In this document: positions 84 to 9,659 of the stretch, one piece after another
Layout: each line of letters opens with the position of its first letter
How positions within the stretch are numbered: position 1 is the stretch's first letter
Source: a virus
UHGV virus genome: UHGV-0074229
DNA length: 10,130 nucleotides
Strand: one strand, 5' to 3'
The notes under the pieces: generated by a model
What the model saw: only the letters and a program-made list of their open reading frames with translations
What the model was told of the DNA's origin: nothing
Database searches by the model: none
Program-made: the position numbers and the translations under genes

Positions 84-100
84 TTTTGTGGAGAAAGTTG

Positions 101-445
101 ATGCGTGATATGTATGAAGTATTGGACCGCTGGGGAGCATGGGCTGCAGCAGATAACAGTGGTGTGGATTGGCAACCGGTAGCCGCTGGCTTCAAGGGGC
201 TTTTACCTCATGGCAAAAAGTCCCGGATTCAGTGTGATGATGACGAAGGCATTATGATAGATAGTTGTGTGGCTCGGTTGCGCAAGTATAAACCAGAGGA
301 ATATGAGCTAATTATAGCTCATTTTGTTATTGGTATTTCGCTTAGAACTATTGCGAAGAAGCGAAAATGTTCGGACGGTACGATTAGAAAGGAATTGCAA
401 ACTGCTTTAGGTTTTATTGAAGGGTGTTTTTATTTCATAAAATAG
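101..445 (+). CDS. Q: Late-gene antitermination protein Q (phage 82 / QuuD-like family)
   Basis: Translation MRDMYEVLDRWGAWAA...AAGFKGL...SRIQCDDDEG...CSDGTIRKELQTALGFIEG matches the conserved blocks I recall for 82-type Q antiterminators (QuuD of DLP12). ATG at 101 is preceded by GGAGAAAG; the ORF track's position 86 is a TTG and probably not the start. It lies directly upstream of the lysis region as expected. Confidence 0.8.
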   Translation: MRDMYEVLDRWGAWAAADNSGVDWQPVAAGFKGLLPHGKKSRIQCDDDEGIMIDSCVARLRKYKPEEYELIIAHFVIGISLRTIAKKRKCSDGTIRKELQTALGFIEGCFYFIK

Positions 446-959: not shown

Positions 960-3900
960 TTAATGTCCTATGCGGTTTAACGTATTAAAGGCATCACTAA
1001 TCTTGGGTGTGAGAATTAATTTTCTTTTAATGCCAATGTTTTTTGCTAACTCTTTCAATGCTTCTTCTTCAGTTCTTTTTAAATCATAGTTACTTGTTAT
1101 AATTTGATTAATCTTGAAGAAAAGAGATTCTTGAACAACTTTGTTTTGTATCTTTGCTAAATCGTTAGCTAATTGTATAACCATTTCATCTTTAATATCC
1201 ATTAAGGTGAAAGTTAAAATAGCCTTTTCTACAGGATTGCTATTTGAGTCTTTTGATTCAGTAATAATGTTTGCAATACGTGGTTTTTTCGAGCTTAAGT
1301 CATTGCTCATAATAAACTGTATGTTATTTGGGATCATTGAGCGAACTAAAGACAATACTAGTTTAAACATTTCAAAAACTCGTTGTCTTTCGTTATCGGT
1401 TAATTTATCCTCTTGCATTTTCTTTTCTAATGCAGGGAGTATTACTGGAAGAACAAATGAATCATCCATTAGTACTAGTGACGCTTTCATGTAAAAAACA
1501 TAACCCTTTACAAGGTCATTAAATATATTTAATATATTTTCTCTTTCCATAGATAATTCAGTACTACGGAATACCCTTGCATAAAGAGATAAAGTGTTAA
1601 TAAGATCATGTAACAGATTATTATTACCTTCCGCTCTAACATTTGATATATTAGCTTTTTTATCTTTATCAGATAAAGGTGATAATTCATCTAGTCGCGC
1701 GTCATCTTTTTCTCTATCTGCACGGAGTGATTCTATCTTTTTTTCGAAATCATCTTGGGTTGATACCATATCTAAAATAGAGAAAGTATTAGAGTCTTCA
1801 ATCTTTATATCTTCAATATTTATTCCCTTATCTTCGAGCATTCGTTCAGATAAAGAAGATTTGATTGCATTAGTCTTCTTTTTAAGTAAGTATAATAAAT
1901 CAAGACTAGATGAGTTCTGCGATGAATAGTATTCAATAACTTTATGTAGATGTAGATAATTATTATCGGATAAAATTTCTTTCTTTAGCTCTTCGTTATG
2001 CTTCATGAAATAAGCGATGGAATAGTATAAAAAGCAAGGCTGCGAGAAAATCACATTACATAGCTCTTCTTTCAATATTCCACATTCTTTTAATGGTTTT
2101 ATATAGTCTTCTACTTGATAATCATGCATGGTATCTCTATTGAAAATTATTGCAGTCTGCAGAAGATCATTATTTGAAATAAAATTACATTTGTTTTTGA
2201 ATAATGTAAATCCTAAATATCCAAGAAAATGCCGAAGTTCTTTAAATTGTGGCTTATTAGGCGGAGTATCCATAAAATGTTTACGAAGCAAAATTTCTAT
2301 GAAGTTTTCTATAATATCAGACTCACTTAATATTCCTTTAACGTCATGATCAACTTCATAAATAGCTAAAAGCATTGAGTATGTAAAATAATTATGAGGA
2401 AGTTGCGAATTGTTGATTGTTCGCGTGATTTCTTTGTATATTATATTTTGTGATGTTGTGTCGTGCCATCTTGATACAATATCGCGAACATTAGATCTGC
2501 GTAATGAACCTATAGCAATTGCATGAAATTTAGCTTTGCTTTCATCTGATAATATTTTAACTACCAGATCTGAATTATTATAGCCAGCAGTTACGATAAA
2601 TCTACATTCTTTGAATTTTATAAAAAAATCAGAAATTACACATTGTTCTTTTGTATTTATATTGTCCAGATTATCAATATATATAACACATCTTCCCTCA
2701 TGTAACATTTTTTTAATTTTTTCTTCAAAAGATGTGGTCGAATCTGCATTGAAATATTGTGTACATAATGCGCTTACAATTGTATTTAAGCTATTTAATT
2801 CAATTGCATTTAAATCTAAGAAAAATGCAAAGTTACTGAAGTCTTTGCAGGCCTGTTTTTCTAGACTCTTAATGAATAGGTATTTTAAAAGAGATGTTTT
2901 ACCTGAGCTATGGTTTCCTACAATCACAAGGTTGTTTCGTCCTTCTAGTAATTCTTGTGTGGACTTAATCTCCATAGAAGGCATGGCTCCAAGAGCAAAT
3001 TCAAGGAAATTTGGTTCAGTAAATAGAGTTCTTAGACTTTTTTTCTTTTCATCAGAGATTCCAATGTTAATTAATAAATCCTTATCAGTTTTCTCTAGAA
3101 TCTCATTAGATAATGTTGCAAATTTTTCAGAGTCAAAAGTTAGAGTTTTCTCAGTGGTGAAATCAAAAACACCACCATTTCCTCTTTCTTCCCATGGTTC
3201 ATAGTATGTTTTTTCTTTATTATATTTTCTATAAAAAATTCTTCCGTCTGATATGACATTTGAACTATTAAAATTTATTAATGAATAGCCTGATACATTT
3301 TCACTAGTATCCAAAGTTCCTGCTTGCAAAAAGAGGGTGATGTTTTCACAAAAACTAGATTCTAGTTTTTGTTTAAAATCATGCATATGACCAAAAAAGA
3401 ACATTGAAACTTTTTTTTCAATAAATGTTGAAAAAATGTCACGATCATTCTTATTCAACCAATCTAAAGGATGATGGCATAATAATATTATTTTTGCATC
3501 AGAAGGTATTTTGGCACGATTGATAAAATCAATTTGCTTTTGGGTAATTCGTAAGTTACCAATATCATTATCATCCATAGCTAACCATGCGCTATTTACG
3601 CTAACGACGTATAATTTGTTTGTTACTTTAAAGCATGTAATCATGCGTCCAGATTGTTCAACATCAGAATGATGATCTAATATTGTTTTATTATATTCAC
3701 AGTACTCGTAGAGACGTTCCCATGAATACTCTCCATTATTTATCATATCAAAGTATGATGATATGAAATTTTCGTCCGAACCAGTTCGCAGTTGTTTTTC
3801 AAGTGGATGAACTTTACTTCTGTCCACATCATGATTGCCTGGGGTTATAAAAATGTTTTTTTTACTGATGTTCAGCTTTTGAATAAGTGGAGAGAGGAAA

Positions 3901-4112
3901 TGTTCATCAAATAGTTGAAATTGCTCTTTGGTTCCAGAAAACGTTAAATCCCCAGTAAAAAAAATGGCATCTATCTGGAGGTTGTTTTCTTTACTTAATG
4001 AATGTATATCATTAACTAATACTGTGACCAGTTCTTTGGCTTTCTTCCAGTGAAAACCATATTTTTTTGAGTCTGATAAGTGTAAGTCGGATAAGTGTAC
4101 AATTGATTTCAT
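960..4112 (-). CDS. Large multidomain protein (~1050 aa): N-terminal calcineurin-like metallophosphoesterase + central P-loop NTPase (STAND/AAA+-like) + C-terminal helical domain; candidate single-gene anti-phage defence protein
   Basis: Uninterrupted 3.18 kb ORF. Metallophosphoesterase motifs all present: D-x-H (VHLSDLH), GD (FFTGDLTF), GNHD (PGNHDV, + coords 3828-3839), H (LLCHHPL), GH-x-H (FFFGHMHD). Walker A GNHSSGKTS (+ coords 2892-2918), Walker B CVIYIDNLD (D at 2673-2675), sensor-1-like FIVTAG ~25 aa later. The track start at 4142 is a TTG; the ATG at 4112-4110 (MKSIVHLSDLH) with upstream AAAGGGAA is the likely start. Strongly AT-rich versus flanking phage genes. Confidence 0.85.
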   Translation of the reverse strand: MKSIVHLSDLHLSDSKKYGFHWKKAKELVTVLVNDIHSLSKENNLQIDAIFFTGDLTFSGTKEQFQLFDEHFLSPLIQKLNISKKNIFITPGNHDVDRSKVHPLEKQLRTGSDENFISSYFDMINNGEYSWERLYEYCEYNKTILDHHSDVEQSGRMITCFKVTNKLYVVSVNSAWLAMDDNDIGNLRITQKQIDFINRAKIPSDAKIILLCHHPLDWLNKNDRDIFSTFIEKKVSMFFFGHMHDFKQKLESSFCENITLFLQAGTLDTSENVSGYSLINFNSSNVISDGRIFYRKYNKEKTYYEPWEERGNGGVFDFTTEKTLTFDSEKFATLSNEILEKTDKDLLINIGISDEKKKSLRTLFTEPNFLEFALGAMPSMEIKSTQELLEGRNNLVIVGNHSSGKTSLLKYLFIKSLEKQACKDFSNFAFFLDLNAIELNSLNTIVSALCTQYFNADSTTSFEEKIKKMLHEGRCVIYIDNLDNINTKEQCVISDFFIKFKECRFIVTAGYNNSDLVVKILSDESKAKFHAIAIGSLRRSNVRDIVSRWHDTTSQNIIYKEITRTINNSQLPHNYFTYSMLLAIYEVDHDVKGILSESDIIENFIEILLRKHFMDTPPNKPQFKELRHFLGYLGFTLFKNKCNFISNNDLLQTAIIFNRDTMHDYQVEDYIKPLKECGILKEELCNVIFSQPCFLYYSIAYFMKHNEELKKEILSDNNYLHLHKVIEYYSSQNSSSLDLLYLLKKKTNAIKSSLSERMLEDKGINIEDIKIEDSNTFSILDMVSTQDDFEKKIESLRADREKDDARLDELSPLSDKDKKANISNVRAEGNNNLLHDLINTLSLYARVFRSTELSMERENILNIFNDLVKGYVFYMKASLVLMDDSFVLPVILPALEKKMQEDKLTDNERQRVFEMFKLVLSLVRSMIPNNIQFIMSNDLSSKKPRIANIITESKDSNSNPVEKAILTFTLMDIKDEMVIQLANDLAKIQNKVVQESLFFKINQIITSNYDLKRTEEEALKELAKNIGIKRKLILTPKISDAFNTLNRIGH

Positions 4113-4181
4113 GCTATTCCCTTTAAACAACAGGATTATCAAAAAATATTGCTTTTACATTTGGTGTGAGAAAGGTAAGTA

Positions 4182-4428: not shown

Positions 4429-4755
4429 ATGCCTCATAACCCAAATACCTGGTTGGAGTTGGTCCAGAGCTGGTGGCGTGGAGACACACCGCTGGGCGCA
4501 GTGATTATGTCGATCGTTATGGCTGGTTTGCGCATTGCCTATTTTGGCGGTGGTGGTGGCTGGAAGCGAAAAACACTCGAAATTCTACTCTGTGGCGCTC
4601 TGACGCTGACTTTTGCATCCGCTCTTGAGTATGTCGGATGGCCTAAATCGCTTTCTGTTGCCATTGGTGGTGGCGTTGGGTTGATCGGTGTCGATGCTAT
4701 TCGTGGGGCTGCAATGAGAGTAATCGGTAATAAGTTTGGTGGCTCTAAGGAGTAA
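4429..4755 (+). CDS. Holin (class I-like, three predicted transmembrane segments)
   Basis: 107-aa protein immediately upstream of the endolysin. Three hydrophobic segments (GAVIMSIVMAGLRIAYF, LEILLCGALTLTFASALEYVGW, LSVAIGGGVGLIGVDAI) and a charged C-terminus. SD GAGGTGAGAG upstream of the ATG. Confidence 0.7.
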   Translation: MPHNPNTWLELVQSWWRGDTPLGAVIMSIVMAGLRIAYFGGGGGWKRKTLEILLCGALTLTFASALEYVGWPKSLSVAIGGGVGLIGVDAIRGAAMRVIGNKFGGSKE

Positions 4756-4758
4756 TTT

Positions 4759-5235
4759 ATGCAGGTACTAAATTCCCAGCGTAAAGCTTTCCTCGATATG
4801 GTGGCATGGTCAGAAGGAACGGATAACGGACGGCAGAAAACCAGAAATCATGGTTATGACGTCATTGTAGGCGGAGAGCTATTTACTGATTACTCCGATC
4901 ACCCTCGCAAACTTGTCACGCTAAACCCCAAACTCAAATCAACAGCAGCCGGGCGCTACCAGCTTCTTTCCCGTTGGTGGGATTCCTATCGTAAGCAGCT
5001 TGGCCTGAAAGACTTCTCTCCGAAAAGCCAGGACGCTGTGGCACTGCAACAGATTAAAGAGCGTGGCGCTTTACCGATGATTGATCGCGGTGATATTCGT
5101 CAGGCTATCGACCGTTGCAGCAATATCTGGGCTTCACTGCCGGGCGCTGGTTACGGTCAGTATGAACATAGAATCGGTGACCTGATTGCCCGATTTAAAG
5201 AGGCTGGTGGGGTGGTAAATGAAGTTGAGTTATAA
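4759..5235 (+). CDS. R: Endolysin, lambda R-type lytic transglycosylase
   Basis: 158-aa translation is near-identical over most of its length to lambda R as I recall it (NSQRKAFLDMVAWSEGTDNGRQKTRNHGYDVIVGGELFTDYSDHPRKLVTLNPKLKST...), including the catalytic Glu in WSEGT. RBS AAGGAG 7 nt upstream. Confidence 0.92.
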   Translation: MQVLNSQRKAFLDMVAWSEGTDNGRQKTRNHGYDVIVGGELFTDYSDHPRKLVTLNPKLKSTAAGRYQLLSRWWDSYRKQLGLKDFSPKSQDAVALQQIKERGALPMIDRGDIRQAIDRCSNIWASLPGAGYGQYEHRIGDLIARFKEAGGVVNEVEL

Positions 5236-5611
5236 GTTGGCTATCTCTGCTTTCTTCTTTACTGTCATTGGCTCTTTCATCTGGTCAGCGAATTACTACT
5301 ACAGCAAATATCAGCATGAAAAGAAACGTGCTGATGAGGCTGTACAAAATGCTGAATCGGCAACTGCCATTACCAATAACGTCCTGCAATCAATACAAAT
5401 CGTAAATACAGTTCTGGAGGCTAACCAGCATGCAAAACAGCAGATCGCACTGGAGTCACAGAGAACCCAGGAAGATATCAAAGTGGCTGTTGAGAATGAT
5501 GATTGCGCTTCCCGTCTTGTTCCTGCTCGTGCAACTGAGCGGCTGCGCCGGTACGCGGACAATTTACGTGCCAGTTCCGGCGGTACCACTACCGGCGAAC
5601 CTGACCGCTGA
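5219..5611 (+). CDS. Rz: Rz-like inner-membrane spanin (i-spanin)
   Basis: Start overlaps the end of R. N-terminal TM segment (LAISAFFFTVIGSFIW) followed by a charged, Gln/Ala-rich helical region. Position after the endolysin and an embedded lipoprotein ORF in another frame are typical of Rz. Confidence 0.65.
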   Translation: MKLSYKLAISAFFFTVIGSFIWSANYYYSKYQHEKKRADEAVQNAESATAITNNVLQSIQIVNTVLEANQHAKQQIALESQRTQEDIKVAVENDDCASRLVPARATERLRRYADNLRASSGGTTTGEPDR

Positions 5612-5753
5612 AACCCCACAGCCAGCTATTCCTGATCCGCTGACTTACAAAGATAGTCTGGATTTAAACGTGAGCCTGCTGTCAGTGCTGGCTGCCTGTA
5701 ATAGGGATAAGGCTGATATTCGTAAAATTGAAGCAGAGAAGAGTGAGCCATGA
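5496..5753 (+). CDS. Rz1: Rz1-like outer-membrane lipoprotein spanin (o-spanin), overlapping Rz in a different frame
   Basis: Signal peptide with lipobox (MMIALPVLFLLVQLSGC) and a proline-rich mature region (YVPVPAVPLPANLTAETPQPAIPDP). It starts inside Rz but runs ~140 nt beyond the Rz stop. Confidence 0.65.
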   Translation: MMIALPVLFLLVQLSGCAGTRTIYVPVPAVPLPANLTAETPQPAIPDPLTYKDSLDLNVSLLSVLAACNRDKADIRKIEAEKSEP

Positions 5754-5947
5754 AGCAGTAAAGTGGAAAGACCGCAGCAAGAAGTGCCTGTTCAGCATTA
5801 ATGAAGATGTCCAAAATACCTAAAATAGCGAGTAGCCACATGCACGTCAACTACGAGCGTGTGGCCAGCATAACGTTGTATAAACTAAGTGATAGCAGAG
5901 CTCAATATACGTATACTGAGAGAACTATTTCTATTTGAGAACTGAAA

Positions 5948-6541
5948 ATGACGGACTATACTTTTTTTTACTGGATAGAGATGCTTCTTAAAGAAGGCAA
6001 TGTTTTATTTATTGTTCTTGCTTGTTTGATTGTCTTTTTTACTTTAAAAAAAGAAATAATAATGGTTTTAGGTCGTCTTAATACAGTTAAGCTAGGTGAC
6101 TATGAGATTAAATTTAAAAAAGAAATGTTTGAAATAGAATCTAAAAGTATAGAGGTTATTAAAAATTTACCTGGAACAAATCCTGTCCTGCCGACACAAC
6201 TCATTGAGAATTTCAATATTTTTGAGAGTCTTGCTAGTACTCAGCCTAATGTTGCTGTACTTTCAGCTTGGCGCGAATTGGAGTTAACCGCTATAACGCT
6301 TGCATCTAAAAAGGGGATTGAGATCAACGGGACATCTTTAGGGCGGGCTTCAGGTATCGCTGCCTTGAAAAATGTCCAATCTGCAAACAAAATTTCTAGT
6401 GACATTGTTAAGCTCTATGAAAAAACAGGAGAGTCTATTAAGCCTATATCCCAAGGAAAGCTCTTATGTACTCAGGAAGATGCTTTGGCATTCTGTAAGA
6501 ATGCAAAAAGACTTAGCAATTATTTAACATCCATATTTTAG
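5948..6541 (+). CDS. Hypothetical membrane-anchored protein (197 aa), AT-rich cargo gene
   Basis: Long ORF with N-terminal hydrophobic segment (VLFIVLACLIVFFTL) and a ~150-aa soluble domain. AT-rich codon usage unlike the flanking phage genes. No recognised motif. Confidence 0.5.
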   Translation: MTDYTFFYWIEMLLKEGNVLFIVLACLIVFFTLKKEIIMVLGRLNTVKLGDYEIKFKKEMFEIESKSIEVIKNLPGTNPVLPTQLIENFNIFESLASTQPNVAVLSAWRELELTAITLASKKGIEINGTSLGRASGIAALKNVQSANKISSDIVKLYEKTGESIKPISQGKLLCTQEDALAFCKNAKRLSNYLTSIF

Positions 6542-6583
6542 TATGTATCCATAGAGCATCCATTATTATTGGAGTAGTCGTTA

Positions 6584-6610
6584 CAGCAGGCATTCACTGA
6601 GTGCCTGCTG
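6584..6610. other. Inverted repeat / hairpin (CAGCAGGCA-ttcactgag-TGCCTGCTG) between convergent ORFs; possible factor-independent terminator lacking a U-tract
   Basis: Perfect 9-bp stem between the stop of the 197-aa ORF (6541) and the stop of the minus-strand 70-aa ORF (6618). Confidence 0.3.
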
Positions 6611-6617
6611 CTGAACT

Positions 6618-6830
6618 CTAATAGCAAGATGGAGAATCTGCATTAAATTTTTGAGAGAGATTACTTATTTCATTCACTCCCTTATGATTAAGTAATCGCC
6701 TAATATTTTCTGGAGCCTTGAATATAAATGGGCCTTTTAGATCCTCGATGATTCCTCCTGCGACGCAGATCAAATGCTTGAAATCAACATCTTCAATTGT
6801 GGGCTTGGAGTCCAGATTATCGCTTGTCAT
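6618..6830 (-). CDS. Hypothetical small protein (70 aa)
   Basis: Minus-strand ORF with a good RBS (AAAGGA ~9 nt upstream of ATG at 6830). AT-rich, no recognised motif. Confidence 0.35.
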   Translation of the reverse strand: MTSDNLDSKPTIEDVDFKHLICVAGGIIEDLKGPFIFKAPENIRRLLNHKGVNEISNLSQKFNADSPSCY

Positions 6831-6958
6831 TTAAAAACATCCTTTCTTGCCATTAGCAGCATTGAGCATGTTATGGAATCTGTAATTTAGGATGCTGGTA
6901 CTACCAGTATTTTTTTGTTTCATTTTGTGTATCACCTCATTTACGAGGGGAGCCTATC

Positions 6959-7309
6959 ATGCCACCACGAACACCAAAAGCCTGCCGTGTTCGCGGCTGC
7001 CGCTCTATAACCACAGACCCGTCAGGCTACTGCGAAAGCCACAAAAGCGAAGGCTGGAAGCAGTACAAACCTAGACAATCCCGTCACCAGCGCGGCTACG
7101 GTTCGAAGTGGGATGTTATCCGCGCGTGCGTGCTGAAGCGTGATAAAGGACTGTGTCAGTTATGTCTGCGTGCTGGTGTGGTGCGTGAGGCGAAAACCGT
7201 TGACCACATCATCCCTAAAGCGCATGGCGGCACTGATGCCGACTGTAATCTGCAGAGTCTGTGCTGGCCTTGTCATAAGGCGAAGACGGCCCGTGAACGG
7301 CTGAAGTGA
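6959..7309 (+). CDS. HNH endonuclease (terminase-associated, HK97 gp74-like)
   Basis: HNH motif DHIIPKAHGG...NLQSLCWPCH with Cys-rich zinc-binding pairs (CRVRGC, CQLC, CWPCH). Strong RBS GAGGGGAG. Position immediately upstream of TerS/TerL is the known HK97-type arrangement. Confidence 0.9.
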   Translation: MPPRTPKACRVRGCRSITTDPSGYCESHKSEGWKQYKPRQSRHQRGYGSKWDVIRACVLKRDKGLCQLCLRAGVVREAKTVDHIIPKAHGGTDADCNLQSLCWPCHKAKTARERLK

Positions 7310-7384: not shown

Positions 7385-7434
7385 ATCGTTTTTTTATACC
7401 CGCGAAAAATGAAATTTAACCAGGAGTGCCGCAT

Positions 7435-7929
7435 ATGGCTGGAACGGCGGGGCGTTCCGGGCGTCGCCCCAAGCCAACGGCGCGCAAGGCGCTGGCCGGA
7501 AACCCCGGCAAGCGAGCCCTGAACAAAGATGAACCTGTTTTTACGCCCATCAAAGGTGTTGAGCCACCGGAGTGGTTCGCAGAAGAAAATCTCCCTCTCG
7601 CCACGATCATGTGGCAGCTGACAACCAAAGAACTCTGTGGTCAGGGGCTGCTGTGCGTGACTGACCTCGCGGTGCTTGAGCGTTGGTGCGTGGCCTATGA
7701 GTTCTGGCGACGTGCCGTGAAAAATATTGCCAGCCAGGGCAACACCATTACCGGTGCAATGGGTGGCAGGGTCAAAAACCCGGAGCTGACCGCCAAGAAA
7801 GAACAGGAGTCCGAGATGAGCAGCACGGGGGCAATGCTCGGACTCGACCCCAGCAGCCGCCAGCGTCTGATTGGCCTGGCGGGGCAGAAGAAAGCCACTA
7901 ACCCGTTTCTGAAAATCATCGAGTCATGA
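7435..7929 (+). CDS. Terminase small subunit (P27 family)
   Basis: N-terminal [30 protein letters not shown] is the basic GNPGKR-type N-terminus of P27-family TerS. ATG at 7435 with AGGAG at 7422-7426; the track start at 7426 is a GTG inside the RBS. Stop overlaps the TerL start (ATGA). Confidence 0.8.
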
Positions 7930-9659
7930 GCCGGAAATCTTACCCCAACGTAAATGCAGCCAATCAGTATGCCCGTGATGTCGTGCGCGGAAAGATTGTG
8001 GCCTGCCAGTTTGTGATTCAGGCCTGCCAGCGCCATCTTGATGACCTGATGGCGGAAAAAAGTAAGTCGTTTCGTTACCGCTTCGACAAGGACCTGGCTG
8101 AACGGGCCGCGAAATTTATTCAGCTGTTGCCGCACACCAAGGGTGAGTGGGCATTCAAACGGATGCCCATCACGCTGGAGCCGTGGCAGCTATTTGTGAT
8201 CTGCTGTGCGTTTGGCTGGGTCAATAAAGGCACCCGGTTGCGCCGCTTCCGGGAGGTGTATACCGAAATCCCCCGTAAGAACGGCAAATCAGCAATCTCT
8301 GCCGGTGTTGCCCTGTATTGTTTTGCCTGTGATAACGAGTTTGGCGCGGAAGTGTATTCCGGTGCCACGACAGAGAAACAGGCGTGGGAAGTCTTTCGCC
8401 CGGCGCGACTGATGTGTAAACGCACACCCATGCTGACGGAAGCGTTCGGGATTGAGGTTAACGCCTCAAACATGAACCGTCCGGAGGATGGCGCGCGGTT
8501 TGAACCGCTGATCGGTAACCCTGGTGATGGTTCATCACCCCACTGTGCGGTGGTGGATGAATATCACGAGCACGCCACCGATGCGCTTTATACCACGATG
8601 CTTACCGGGATGGGGGCGCGACGTCAGCCACTGATGTGGGCCATCACCACCGCCGGGTACAACATTGAGGGGCCGTGCTACGACAAGCGGCGGGAAGTTA
8701 TCGAGATGCTCAACGGTTCGGTACCCAACGATGAACTGTTTGGGATCATCTATACCGTTGATGAAGGTGACGACTGGACCGACCCGCAGGTGCTGGAAAA
8801 AGCCAATCCAAATATTGGCGTGTCGGTTTATCGCGAATTTTTGTTAAGTCAGCAGCAGCGTGCGAAAAATAACGCCCGTCTGGCAAACGTCTTTAAAACA
8901 AAACACCTCAATATCTGGGTGTCGGCGCGTTCGGCGTATTTCAACCTGGTGAGCTGGCAGAGCTGCGAGGATAAATCACTGACCCTTGAGCAGTTCGAGG
9001 GGCAGCCGTGCATTCTGGCCTTTGACCTGGCGCGTAAGCTGGATATGAACAGCATGGCGCGACTTTATACCCGCGAGATTGACGGTAAAACGCATTACTA
9101 CAGTGTGGCCCCGCGTTTCTGGGTACCGTATGACACGGTGTACAGCGTCGAGAAAAATGAAGATCGCCGGACAGCCGAACGCTTTCAGAAATGGGTGGAA
9201 ATGGGCGTTCTGACTGTTACCGCTGGTGCGGAGGTGGATTATCGCTACATCCTCGAGGAGGCCAAAGCGGCGAACAAAATCAGCCCGGTCAGTGAGTCAC
9301 CCATCGACCCCTTCGGGGCGACCGGGCTGTCGCATGACCTTGCTGATGAAGACCTGAACCCCATCACCATCATTCAGAACTACACCAACATGTCCGATCC
9401 GATGAAAGAGCTGGAAGCGGCGATTGAATCGGGGCGCTTTCATCATGACGGCAATCCCATCATGACCTGGTGTATCGGCAACGTGGTCGGCAAAACCATT
9501 CCGGGTAACGATGATGTGGTGAAGCCTGTCAAGGAGCAGGCGGAAAACAAAATCGATGGTGCGGTTGCACTGATTATGGCGATCGGTCGGGCAATGCTCA
9601 AAGAACCCGACGATTTCCTCTCATCTCTTGATCCGGACGATGCTCTCTTAATTCTATGA
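7926..9659 (+). CDS. Terminase large subunit (HK97-like)
   Basis: 577-aa ORF with ATPase Walker A ([10 protein letters not shown]) and Walker B (CAVVDEYHE), plus a C-terminal nuclease-domain-sized region. Translationally coupled to TerS. Confidence 0.9.

Follow-up and report, generated by a model that had tools for sequence, protein, structure and literature searches.

A cargo island behind the spanin genes of an Escherichia coli prophage encodes a predicted membrane-tethered HEPN-fold protein without the canonical catalytic motif

The question raised by this locus is what the prophage carries between its spanin genes and its packaging genes. The DNA analysed here, UHGV virus genome UHGV-0074229 (10,130 nucleotides (nt) in full, hereafter the window), covers the late region of a lambdoid/HK97-like prophage of E. 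coli and is 99.9% identical to strain 300033. An AT-rich island (5754-6958) lies between the embedded spanin gene Rz1 and an HNH endonuclease gene, and it contains two convergent genes, orf197 and orf70. An earlier note, made from the sequence alone, had read the island as the equivalent of the lambda bor slot, in which a membrane-anchored protein of 197 amino acids (aa) with an unassignable soluble domain is accompanied by a 70-aa open reading frame (ORF). Profile comparisons now indicate that orf197 descends from a family of transmembrane (TM)-anchored, DUF4145-like HEPN proteins of about 190 aa, most of which retain the ribonuclease (RNase) motif RNxxxH. The prophage clade (E. coli-type and Yersinia) has lost both the arginine and the histidine of this motif and remains under purifying selection.

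Direct searches did not reveal this ancestry. For orf197 there is no Pfam match even at an expectation value (E) ≤ 1 and nothing significant in NCBIfam, and the gathering threshold of Pfam DUF4145 (PF13643) is not reached. In the BFVD viral structure library nothing matched at E ≤ 0.001, and a PDB sequence search with the family profile returned hits at E ≥ 0.12 only. The AlphaFold2 model (predicted local distance difference test score 79, predicted template modelling score 0.66) starts with a short N-terminal helix. It continues with a single uninterrupted helix over residues 19-72, comprising the TM segment and a stalk, and ends in a helical bundle over residues 83-196, in which the conserved motifs AWRELELTA and RASG are found. 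The four-helix up-down core of this bundle can be superimposed on solved HEPN domains. The model was built on a shallow alignment of eight sequences, but sequence profiles support the assignment of the HEPN fold independently.

An exhaustive profile search against 1.84 billion representatives yielded 264 proteins at E ≤ 1e-3, nearly all of them co-linear and 180-200 aa long. Among 62 aligned relatives, 35 match DUF4145 (best E 6e-8), 14 match HEPN_RiboL-PSP and 10 match HEPN_Swt1. The alignment of the orf197 clade with 30 motif-bearing relatives by hhalign (99.8% probability, E 6e-30) spans 186 columns, so that the entire architecture is homologous and not the HEPN domain alone. By these profiles the membership of orf197 in DUF4145 is transitive only, via its relatives. 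The soluble domain therefore still has no direct family match, as the earlier note had found, but it is no longer unassignable: its fold is that of HEPN, derived from DUF4145-like RNases, and domains of this kind are characteristic of Abi and other defence effectors. Homology to a core phage function, which would have spoken against a cargo gene, was looked for in Pfam, PHROGs, PADLOC and NCBIfam and was not found.

The catalytic motif has a different fate in the two groups. In the motif-bearing relatives (n = 30) R151 and H156 are invariant within the pattern LRxLRNxAxH, and an Rx4-6H signature stands at the motif position in 122 of 148 relatives and in none of the prophage clade. In orf197 the arginine is aligned with I164, the asparagine with K165 and the histidine with S168 or Q169, and the protein of the window contains no histidine at all. 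Hence orf197 lacks the Rx4-6H at the end of the third core helix that defines catalytic HEPN RNases, including the solo-HEPN abortive-infection (Abi) proteins of prophages (HepS/Tha type), and with the canonical motif absent the simple reading as an Abi RNase fails. The motif is missing, too, from the nearest outgroup, a Yersinia family of 35% identity present on more than 150 contigs, whereas P0013, the next relative beyond the Yersinia group, possesses it. The loss is therefore old and probably a single event. Within the clade the replaced loop is invariant at Y157, G161, K165, S168 and G170, as are AWRELELTA and RASG, which looks like a change of function and not decay.

The remainder of the protein is conserved as well. 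The close family of orf197 consists of seven clusters down to 47% identity, all of about 197 aa. The ratio of nonsynonymous to synonymous substitution rates (dN/dS) against diverged homologs is 0.15 and 0.27, and elsewhere the proportion of nonsynonymous differences is far below that of synonymous ones. The single N-terminal TM helix claimed by the earlier note is borne out by a hydrophobic segment at residues 17-33 (Kyte-Doolittle 2.6) that is kept in all full-length relatives. F7, W9 and E11, which precede Met12, are kept in homologs of 47-69% identity. Because of this conservation both the first ATG (the 197-aa start) and the TM helix are considered real, and the starts in the PHROG model (residue 39) and in the PGAP annotation of two genomes (Met12) too short. 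Lysine and arginine are more frequent after the TM segment than before it in 97% of 191 members (mean 3.6 vs 0.46), and by the positive-inside rule the HEPN domain is predicted to face the cytoplasm.

Loci are named below only where they must be told apart: L001, L002 and L022 are the strains 300033, LHM10-1 and AR_0061, L046 is a Yersinia prophage, L006 a metagenomic relative and L042 the contig of the homolog P0007, while L021 and L027/L028 are sister prophages that share HNH and both terminase genes with the window. Codons 5-8 of orf197 contain a homopolymer that is a frameshift hot spot: strain AR_0061 has T7 in place of T8, and PGAP then starts the gene at Met12. P0007, on a contig common to 16 samples, is a frameshifted copy in a T7/A7 run. 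T6/A7 runs also lie just after the TM segment (6035-6056), and the runs coincide with natural frameshift variants. Such variants may reflect on/off switching by slippage, decay or sequencing error.

The surroundings of orf197 show it to be cargo. Its GC content is 34.2%, and that of positions 6542-6958 is 38.4%, against 49.2% in the lysis genes and 55.3% from HNH to the large terminase subunit (TerL), so the AT-rich island between lysis cassette and HNH/terminase genes stands as the earlier note had described it. The same 34-36% is found in every background, L003, L004, L006 and L046 included, where the flanks have 47-53%. Similarity of the prophage backbone ends inside the last Rz1 codons (at 5714 in L027, 5722 in L041 and 5733 in L004) and starts again at 6580 (L027) or 6949-6959 (L021, L004, L006). 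A survey of related prophages, which the earlier note had called for, revealed other cargo in the same slot: a DUF6979 protein with a 67-aa ORF in L021, and a 113-aa minus-strand gene (phrog_12178) in L027/L028. The same spanin genes (at least 80% coverage) occur in 438 of 5,426 complete E. coli genomes, the island in 20. Both the composition and the presence or absence among related phages are thus those of a moron, and the island marks a slot for variable cargo at the right end of this lambdoid/HK97-like prophage. The comparison with bor holds for the position of variable cargo after Rz/Rz1 and not for the protein family, as orf197 has neither a Pfam match to Lambda Bor nor a lipobox.

The island consists of two independent modules and not of a functional pair. 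Similarity to the orf197 homolog of L006 stops exactly at the stop codon (6541). All diverged orf197 homologs occur without orf70, namely those of L003, L004, L006-8 and L041 (by tblastn or gene calls) and of the Yersinia prophage L046, in which only a terminator and a ParB-like gene follow. A diverged orf70 homolog is present in L027/L028 without orf197. The two genes occur together in all island carriers (20 E. coli genomes and 5 IMG/VR contigs). Because each is found without the other, orf197 and orf70 are not one system, and their treatment as a pair in the earlier note is not upheld. In L006 only a truncated remnant of HNH (2297-2443) comes after the orf197 homolog, followed by an N-terminally TM-anchored ORF of 149 aa without a significant Pfam match (2680-3129). 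A 45-aa ORF at 5801-5938 was considered as a further gene and rejected: it lies where the island varies most (5.2% variable sites), has no family match and nothing significant in Pfam, PADLOC or NCBIfam, and in L002 shares 89% amino-acid identity where orf197 shares 99.5%.

The family is rare. By megablast and tblastn no copy of orf197 or orf70 was found in 50,697 GenBank phage records, and neither family was matched in the GTDB species-representative genomes. A metagenome scan added one further identical locus and a partial one. The orf197 clade is known from prophages and metagenomes only.

The second gene of the island, the convergent 70-aa ORF, is by its conservation a real gene. A large protein search with orf70 returned near-identical copies only, and within E. 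coli there is one variable site in 213 nt, too few for a test of selection. A more distant DNA search detected a segment of about 70% identity in five genomes. In L027 this segment is an intact 69-aa ORF (61% identity) with conservative replacements, in-frame indels and the C-terminus PSCY* kept, and against this diverged copy dN/dS is 0.16. The Shine-Dalgarno sequence pointed out in the earlier note is indeed present, and the L027 homolog has AGGAG at equal spacing. Searches of Pfam, PADLOC and NCBIfam gave nothing significant for orf70, and those of PHROGs a family of unknown function only.

Both hairpins of the earlier note are present too (Table 1). For the one on the 3' side of orf70, with arms of 13 nt around a perfect 9-bp core, the folding energy is -26.7 kcal/mol (z = -5.2; 0 of 200 shuffles equally stable). 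Since it lacks a U-tract on either strand, it is not a canonical intrinsic terminator. It is kept in L027 (GGCAGGCACTTA / TAAGTGCCTGCC, -23.7 kcal/mol), where the differences near the loop preserve base pairing, and it travels with orf70. The structure can be extended (6552-6640) to an imperfect stem of -40.7 kcal/mol over 105 nt (z = -5.2), which covers the stop codon and last codons of orf70. The hairpin with a T7 run before the HNH ribosome-binding site is the sole terminator-like site in a scan of 5600-7100, where 1.0 is expected by chance (z = -3.2). The E. coli copies differ from each other in this site (indel and substitution at 6909-6910), and in L027 it is poorly conserved.

Table 1. 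Features of the window and of the cargo island, in window coordinates.
Feature	Position	Strand	Remarks
Q antiterminator	86-445		
AT-rich cargo gene	960-4142	-	
Lambda-family holin	4429-4755		
GH24 lysozyme	4759-5235		
Rz	5219-5611		
Rz1/LysC	5430-5753		Embedded in Rz; stop at 5753
Left recombination junction	5715-5753	+	Inside Rz1 3' end
Cargo island	5754-6958		Between Rz1 and HNH
Module 1, AT-rich cassette with orf197	about 5735-6579		
Sigma-70 promoter-like site, GTGATA-17-TATACT	5889-5917	+	-10 ends 30 nt before orf197 ATG
orf197, membrane-tethered HEPN-fold protein (predicted)	5948-6541	+	phrog_30030; PGAP 'hypothetical protein' WP_001560812
T8 homopolymer, frameshift hot spot	5962-5969	+	Codons 5-8
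Transmembrane helix	5996-6046	+	Codons 17-33 (GNVLFIVLACLIVFFTL); predicted N-out/C-in
HEPN-fold bundle	6194-6535	+	Codons 83-196; helices 83-95, 100-121, 136-145, 151-168, 176-196
HEPN Rx4-6H catalytic position, replaced	6416-6457	+	Codons 157-170 (YEKTGESIKPISQG)
Module 2, orf70 and its downstream hairpin	6580-6948		
GC-rich hairpin	6584-6610		3' side of orf70, in module 2
orf70, 70-aa orphan gene	6618-6830	-	phrog_22590; convergent to orf197; not annotated by PGAP
Shine-Dalgarno AAGGA of orf70	6840-6844	-	9 nt before ATG
Terminator-like hairpin and T7 run	6889-6919	+	Hairpin 6889-6913, T7 6910-6916; upstream of HNH ribosome-binding site
HNH endonuclease	6959-7309		
P27-family small terminase subunit (TerS)	7426-7929		
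TerL	7926-9659		

The signals around orf197 bear on when it would be expressed. The promoter-like site upstream of orf197 matches the consensus at 9 of 12 positions, and neither hexamer varies in 13 E. coli copies. The pattern GTGnnn-17-TAnAnT, with the -10 ending 29-31 nt before the ATG, is shared by the window, L006, L003 (TATAAT), L004 and L041, five lineages whose upstream regions do not align with each other. The Yersinia prophage L046 has ATTACA-17-TATGAT, ending 32 nt upstream of the ATG. Canonical intrinsic terminators directly follow the stop codon of the orf197 homolog in L046 and L004. A private terminator in a Q-antiterminated operon would imply that the private promoter fires without Q, that is, in the lysogen, and this is the main argument for lysogenic expression. 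The position itself is fixed: in the window as in L003, L004, L041 and L046, phages with different holins, endolysins and packaging modules, Rz/Rz1 is directly followed by orf197 on the late strand. In L042 a tandem repeat of ttggta (four copies, 1150-1180) lies between the promoter-like -10 and the start codon of P0007, and the leader is about 12 nt longer there than in L004 and L041.

Taken together, these features lead us to prefer, tentatively, a reading of orf197 as a lysogen-expressed moron: a non-catalytic, membrane-tethered HEPN protein that would act by binding, as a conflict factor. Transcription in the lysogen would start from its own sigma-70 promoter and be insulated by a terminator, and Q-antiterminated late transcription may additionally read through the gene. 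The product is predicted to have a short N-terminal tail, a TM helix, a long helical stalk and a cytoplasmic HEPN domain, and would form a HEPN-type dimer or oligomer in the inner membrane without canonical RNA cleavage. At the cytoplasmic face of the membrane it could bind RNA or a nucleotide, or else a phage protein that is entering the cell or being assembled. The outcome would be a superinfection-exclusion or Abi-type factor to the benefit of the lysogen, and by analogy orf197 may stand nearer to the RNA-binding AbiP than to the catalytic HepS, Tha and RAZR. A more specific form is rather doubtful: a neofunctionalised, non-enzymatic HEPN, long kept by Enterobacterales prophages as a pseudo-RNase that only binds, either as an exclusion or Abi sensor in the inner membrane or as a dominant-negative decoy against HEPN/DUF4145 RNase defences. 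If this were true, it would be the first described phage-carried 'dead-HEPN' conflict factor.

Several observations weigh against the conflict-factor proposal. The promoter pattern was recognised post hoc, and its shuffle frequencies (0.3-0.9% each) are therefore generous. Promoter-like sites are not enriched in 5600-7100 (6 vs 4.0 +/- 1.9 in shuffles). The window has no canonical terminator just after the orf197 stop, and the first one with a U-tract lies about 350 nt downstream, beyond orf70. The strict post-spanin position could point to a lysis-linked role. Ten polar residues are invariant in the clade (R109, E110, E112, R133, S135, K141, K165, D178, N185 and K187), and they may form an alternative catalytic site. 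No PADLOC or NCBIfam model fits orf197 or orf70, which the defence-model check proposed in the earlier note might have supplied, and PADLOC 2.0 assigns both to 0 defence families. The relatives match defence models weakly only (PDC-M16A at 8e-6; Csx1-type and CARF-HEPN-type), and one of them weakly matches the PD-T7-4 model. The motif-bearing relatives stand in mixed contexts, with one of four examined in a clear defence island: L020 combines AAA_15/DUF4276, Fic, RhuM and MmeI, L016 adjoins a second DUF4145 protein, and L014 lies among housekeeping genes. These relatives come mostly from environmental metagenomes, and one phage-borne family among them, phrog_18019, bears the motif. In L016/L017 the motif-bearing TM-HEPN P0184 (6001-6597) is directly downstream of a 236-aa DUF4145-type protein (5109-5819), an arrangement that suggests tandem HEPN paralogs in some environmental genomes.

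Five other explanations were considered. It is unlikely that orf197 is still a toxic RNase and Abi effector with a non-canonical site built from clade-invariant polar residues such as R109, E110, E112, R133 and K165. Within the clade neither the former catalytic loop nor several charged residues vary, purifying selection is strong, the relatives are bona fide motif-bearing HEPNs, and HEPN families with alternative active-site residues were noted by Anantharaman et al. (PMC3710099). However, both R and H are gone and the protein has no histidine, the R/H motif is needed for defence in HepS, RAZR and Tha (PMC13043305, PMC13017515, PMC11087260), and no conserved immunity partner stands beside orf197. 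A late-expressed anti-defence decoy is slightly harder to credit: here a catalytically dead HEPN co-localised at the membrane would poison the TM-HEPN/DUF4145 RNases of the host or of rival prophages via hetero-oligomers, or sequester their trigger. Such poisoning would fit the composite active sites of HEPNs, which lie at dimer interfaces (PMC13043305, PMC13017515), and the retention of TM anchor, stalk and AWRExE helix when the catalytic residues alone were lost. In addition, orf197 shares the strand of the late operon, without a terminator to separate its start from Rz1, and phage-borne motif-bearing relatives do exist (phrog_18019). Yet identity to the nearest motif-bearing relatives is no higher than about 20-29%, and most of these come from environmental metagenomes and not from Enterobacteriaceae, so that hetero-oligomers with a host paralog are unlikely, and the private promoter and terminator layout favours expression in the lysogen. 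An accessory lysis protein, a membrane-bound timing regulator of holin or spanin co-transcribed with Rz/Rz1, is improbable as well. It would explain a predicted inner-membrane protein that in five lineages, with identities as low as 35% and with varied holins and endolysins, stands on the same strand just behind Rz/Rz1. Against this, the spanins are far more widespread than the island (438 vs 20 E. coli genomes) and in sister phages the slot is filled by unrelated cargo, orf197 is AT-rich relative to the lysis genes everywhere and has its own promoter-like site and terminator, and a lysis role for the HEPN fold is not known.

The remaining two are very improbable. A two-gene system (toxin and antitoxin, or effector and regulator) with a bidirectional terminator between its genes would account for two adjacent, convergent genes that are separated by a strong hairpin and co-occur in 20 E. 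coli genomes and 5 IMG/VR contigs. It was rejected, as the distribution contradicts it: co-occurrence breaks down in the diverged orf197 homologs without orf70 and in the L027/L028 orf70 homolog without orf197, and the module boundaries at 6541 and 6580 part the genes. Functionless hitch-hiking DNA with the decaying remnants of a HEPN toxin would be consistent with the lost motif, the frameshifted copies in L022 and P0007/L042 and the rarity of the family, but it is hardly credible given an ORF that is still full-length in Yersinia phages, at 35% identity to that of E. coli, and a former active-site loop that is invariant within the clade. This reading of the genes as pseudogenes was likewise rejected, being contradicted by the dN/dS values (0.15-0.27 for orf197, 0.16 for orf70).

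The wider setting holds a second cargo slot. Between Q and the holin lies a first AT-rich island (960-4142, minus strand) with a 1060-aa metallophosphoesterase and NACHT/STAND NTPase protein, which PGAP labels simply 'metallophosphoesterase'. It matches the PADLOC candidate defence model PDC-S60 over its full length (E 1.4e-97) and stays below the cut-off of NCBIfam DS8_antiphage (171 bits vs 790). Other minus-strand cargo of this slot comprises two hypothetical genes in L027, a DUF3800 gene in L004 and a 280-aa ORF in L046. Scans of the window for tRNA genes and Rfam families found nothing. The Rz gene (130 aa, phrog_214, E 4e-47) was left unannotated by PGAP in most genomes of L001, L002, L022, L023, L025 and L026. 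The embedded Rz1/LysC is annotated as a 107-aa protein with a start that was probably placed too far upstream, given a lipobox (LSGC) at residues 36-39. The host prophages of L001 and L002 are degraded. In L001 the DUF968, tail sheath and DNA circularization genes have frameshifts or internal stops, and TerL is directly followed by myovirus-type tail genes, without portal or capsid. In L002 an IS3 element truncates Q, and ISEcp1 and host bet genes are found in place of TerL. Intact in both are the lysis genes, orf197, orf70 and HNH.

The HEPN superfamily, DUF4145 domains, prophage HEPN defences and morons are already known. What appears to be new is the family assignment of orf197, its conserved TM-stalk-HEPN architecture, an old prophage clade without the catalytic dyad under selection, and the fixed post-spanin slot. 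With this, phrog_30030 becomes a HEPN-superfamily family with a defined architecture and predicted topology, and phrog_22590 is shown to be a real gene. HEPN RNases are among the commonest Abi effectors, and the solo-HEPNs of prophages (HepS, Tha and RAZR-type) are a current focus of research. The orf197 lineage offers a tractable case for what non-catalytic HEPN domains do in phage-host and phage-phage conflict: as one cassette of 0.6 kb that probably brings its native promoter, it can be cloned directly and challenged with a panel of phages.

Among known systems, morons in the sense of Juhala, Hendrix and colleagues, such as lambda bor, are late-region cargo of atypical composition with their own promoter and terminator. 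Like bor, orf197 is located after Rz/Rz1 and ahead of the packaging genes. Bor, however, is a lipoprotein of the outer membrane and its gene lies on the opposite strand, whereas orf197 has no lipobox and is on the late strand. The catalytically inactive HEPN-fold regulators MtlR and YggD (PDB 3brj, 6kcr, 3c8g) are, unlike orf197, soluble housekeeping regulators of mannitol metabolism, with no TM segment and not borne by phages.

The defence HEPNs differ in another way. HepS, the solo-HEPN Abi protein of the Gifsy-1 prophage (PDB 9oik; PMC13043305), is soluble and tetrameric and needs a functional R100-H105 for defence, in contrast to orf197 with its TM anchor and stalk and without R and H. Tha is likewise a solo-HEPN Abi protein of a prophage (PMC11087260). 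Proteins of the HepS/Tha type are triggered by a structural protein of the phage. In RAZR/PD-T7-4 a zinc finger is combined with a DUF4145 domain that acts as RNase (PMC13017515). Its effector belongs to the same DUF4145-type HEPN class as the relatives of orf197, but RAZR is cytosolic, carries a zinc ribbon where orf197 has the N-terminal TM-stalk, and requires R146 and H154, the catalytic dyad that orf197 lacks. In the Lactococcus protein AbiP, membrane-anchored and RNA-binding (Domingues 2008 as cited in PMC13064643), that citing account describes a single N-terminal TM segment, a cytoplasmic nucleic-acid-binding domain and no known catalysis, as proposed for orf197. It is plasmid-borne in a Gram-positive host and, in what PMC13064643 says of it, is assigned no fold, and the likeness to orf197 is one of description only.

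In the 'HEPN-TM' system of PICIs, a two-gene system, the HEPN protein and the TM protein are separate. That system is mentioned in PMC11087260 and PMC12948488. Motif-less HEPN domains have been proposed to act as binding domains, with MtlR and YggD as working examples, and TM fusions of DUF4145/Swt1-like HEPN domains have been noted (PMC3710099). In the literature searched, no experimentally characterised member of the TM-HEPN family of about 190 aa was found. This family, which includes phrog_18019, differs from orf197 in its invariant R and H (RNxxxH) and in its chromosomal or defence-island contexts. In architecture the two are alike from end to end: a TM segment with 'AWP', a stalk, and a HEPN domain with 'EAWRExE'.

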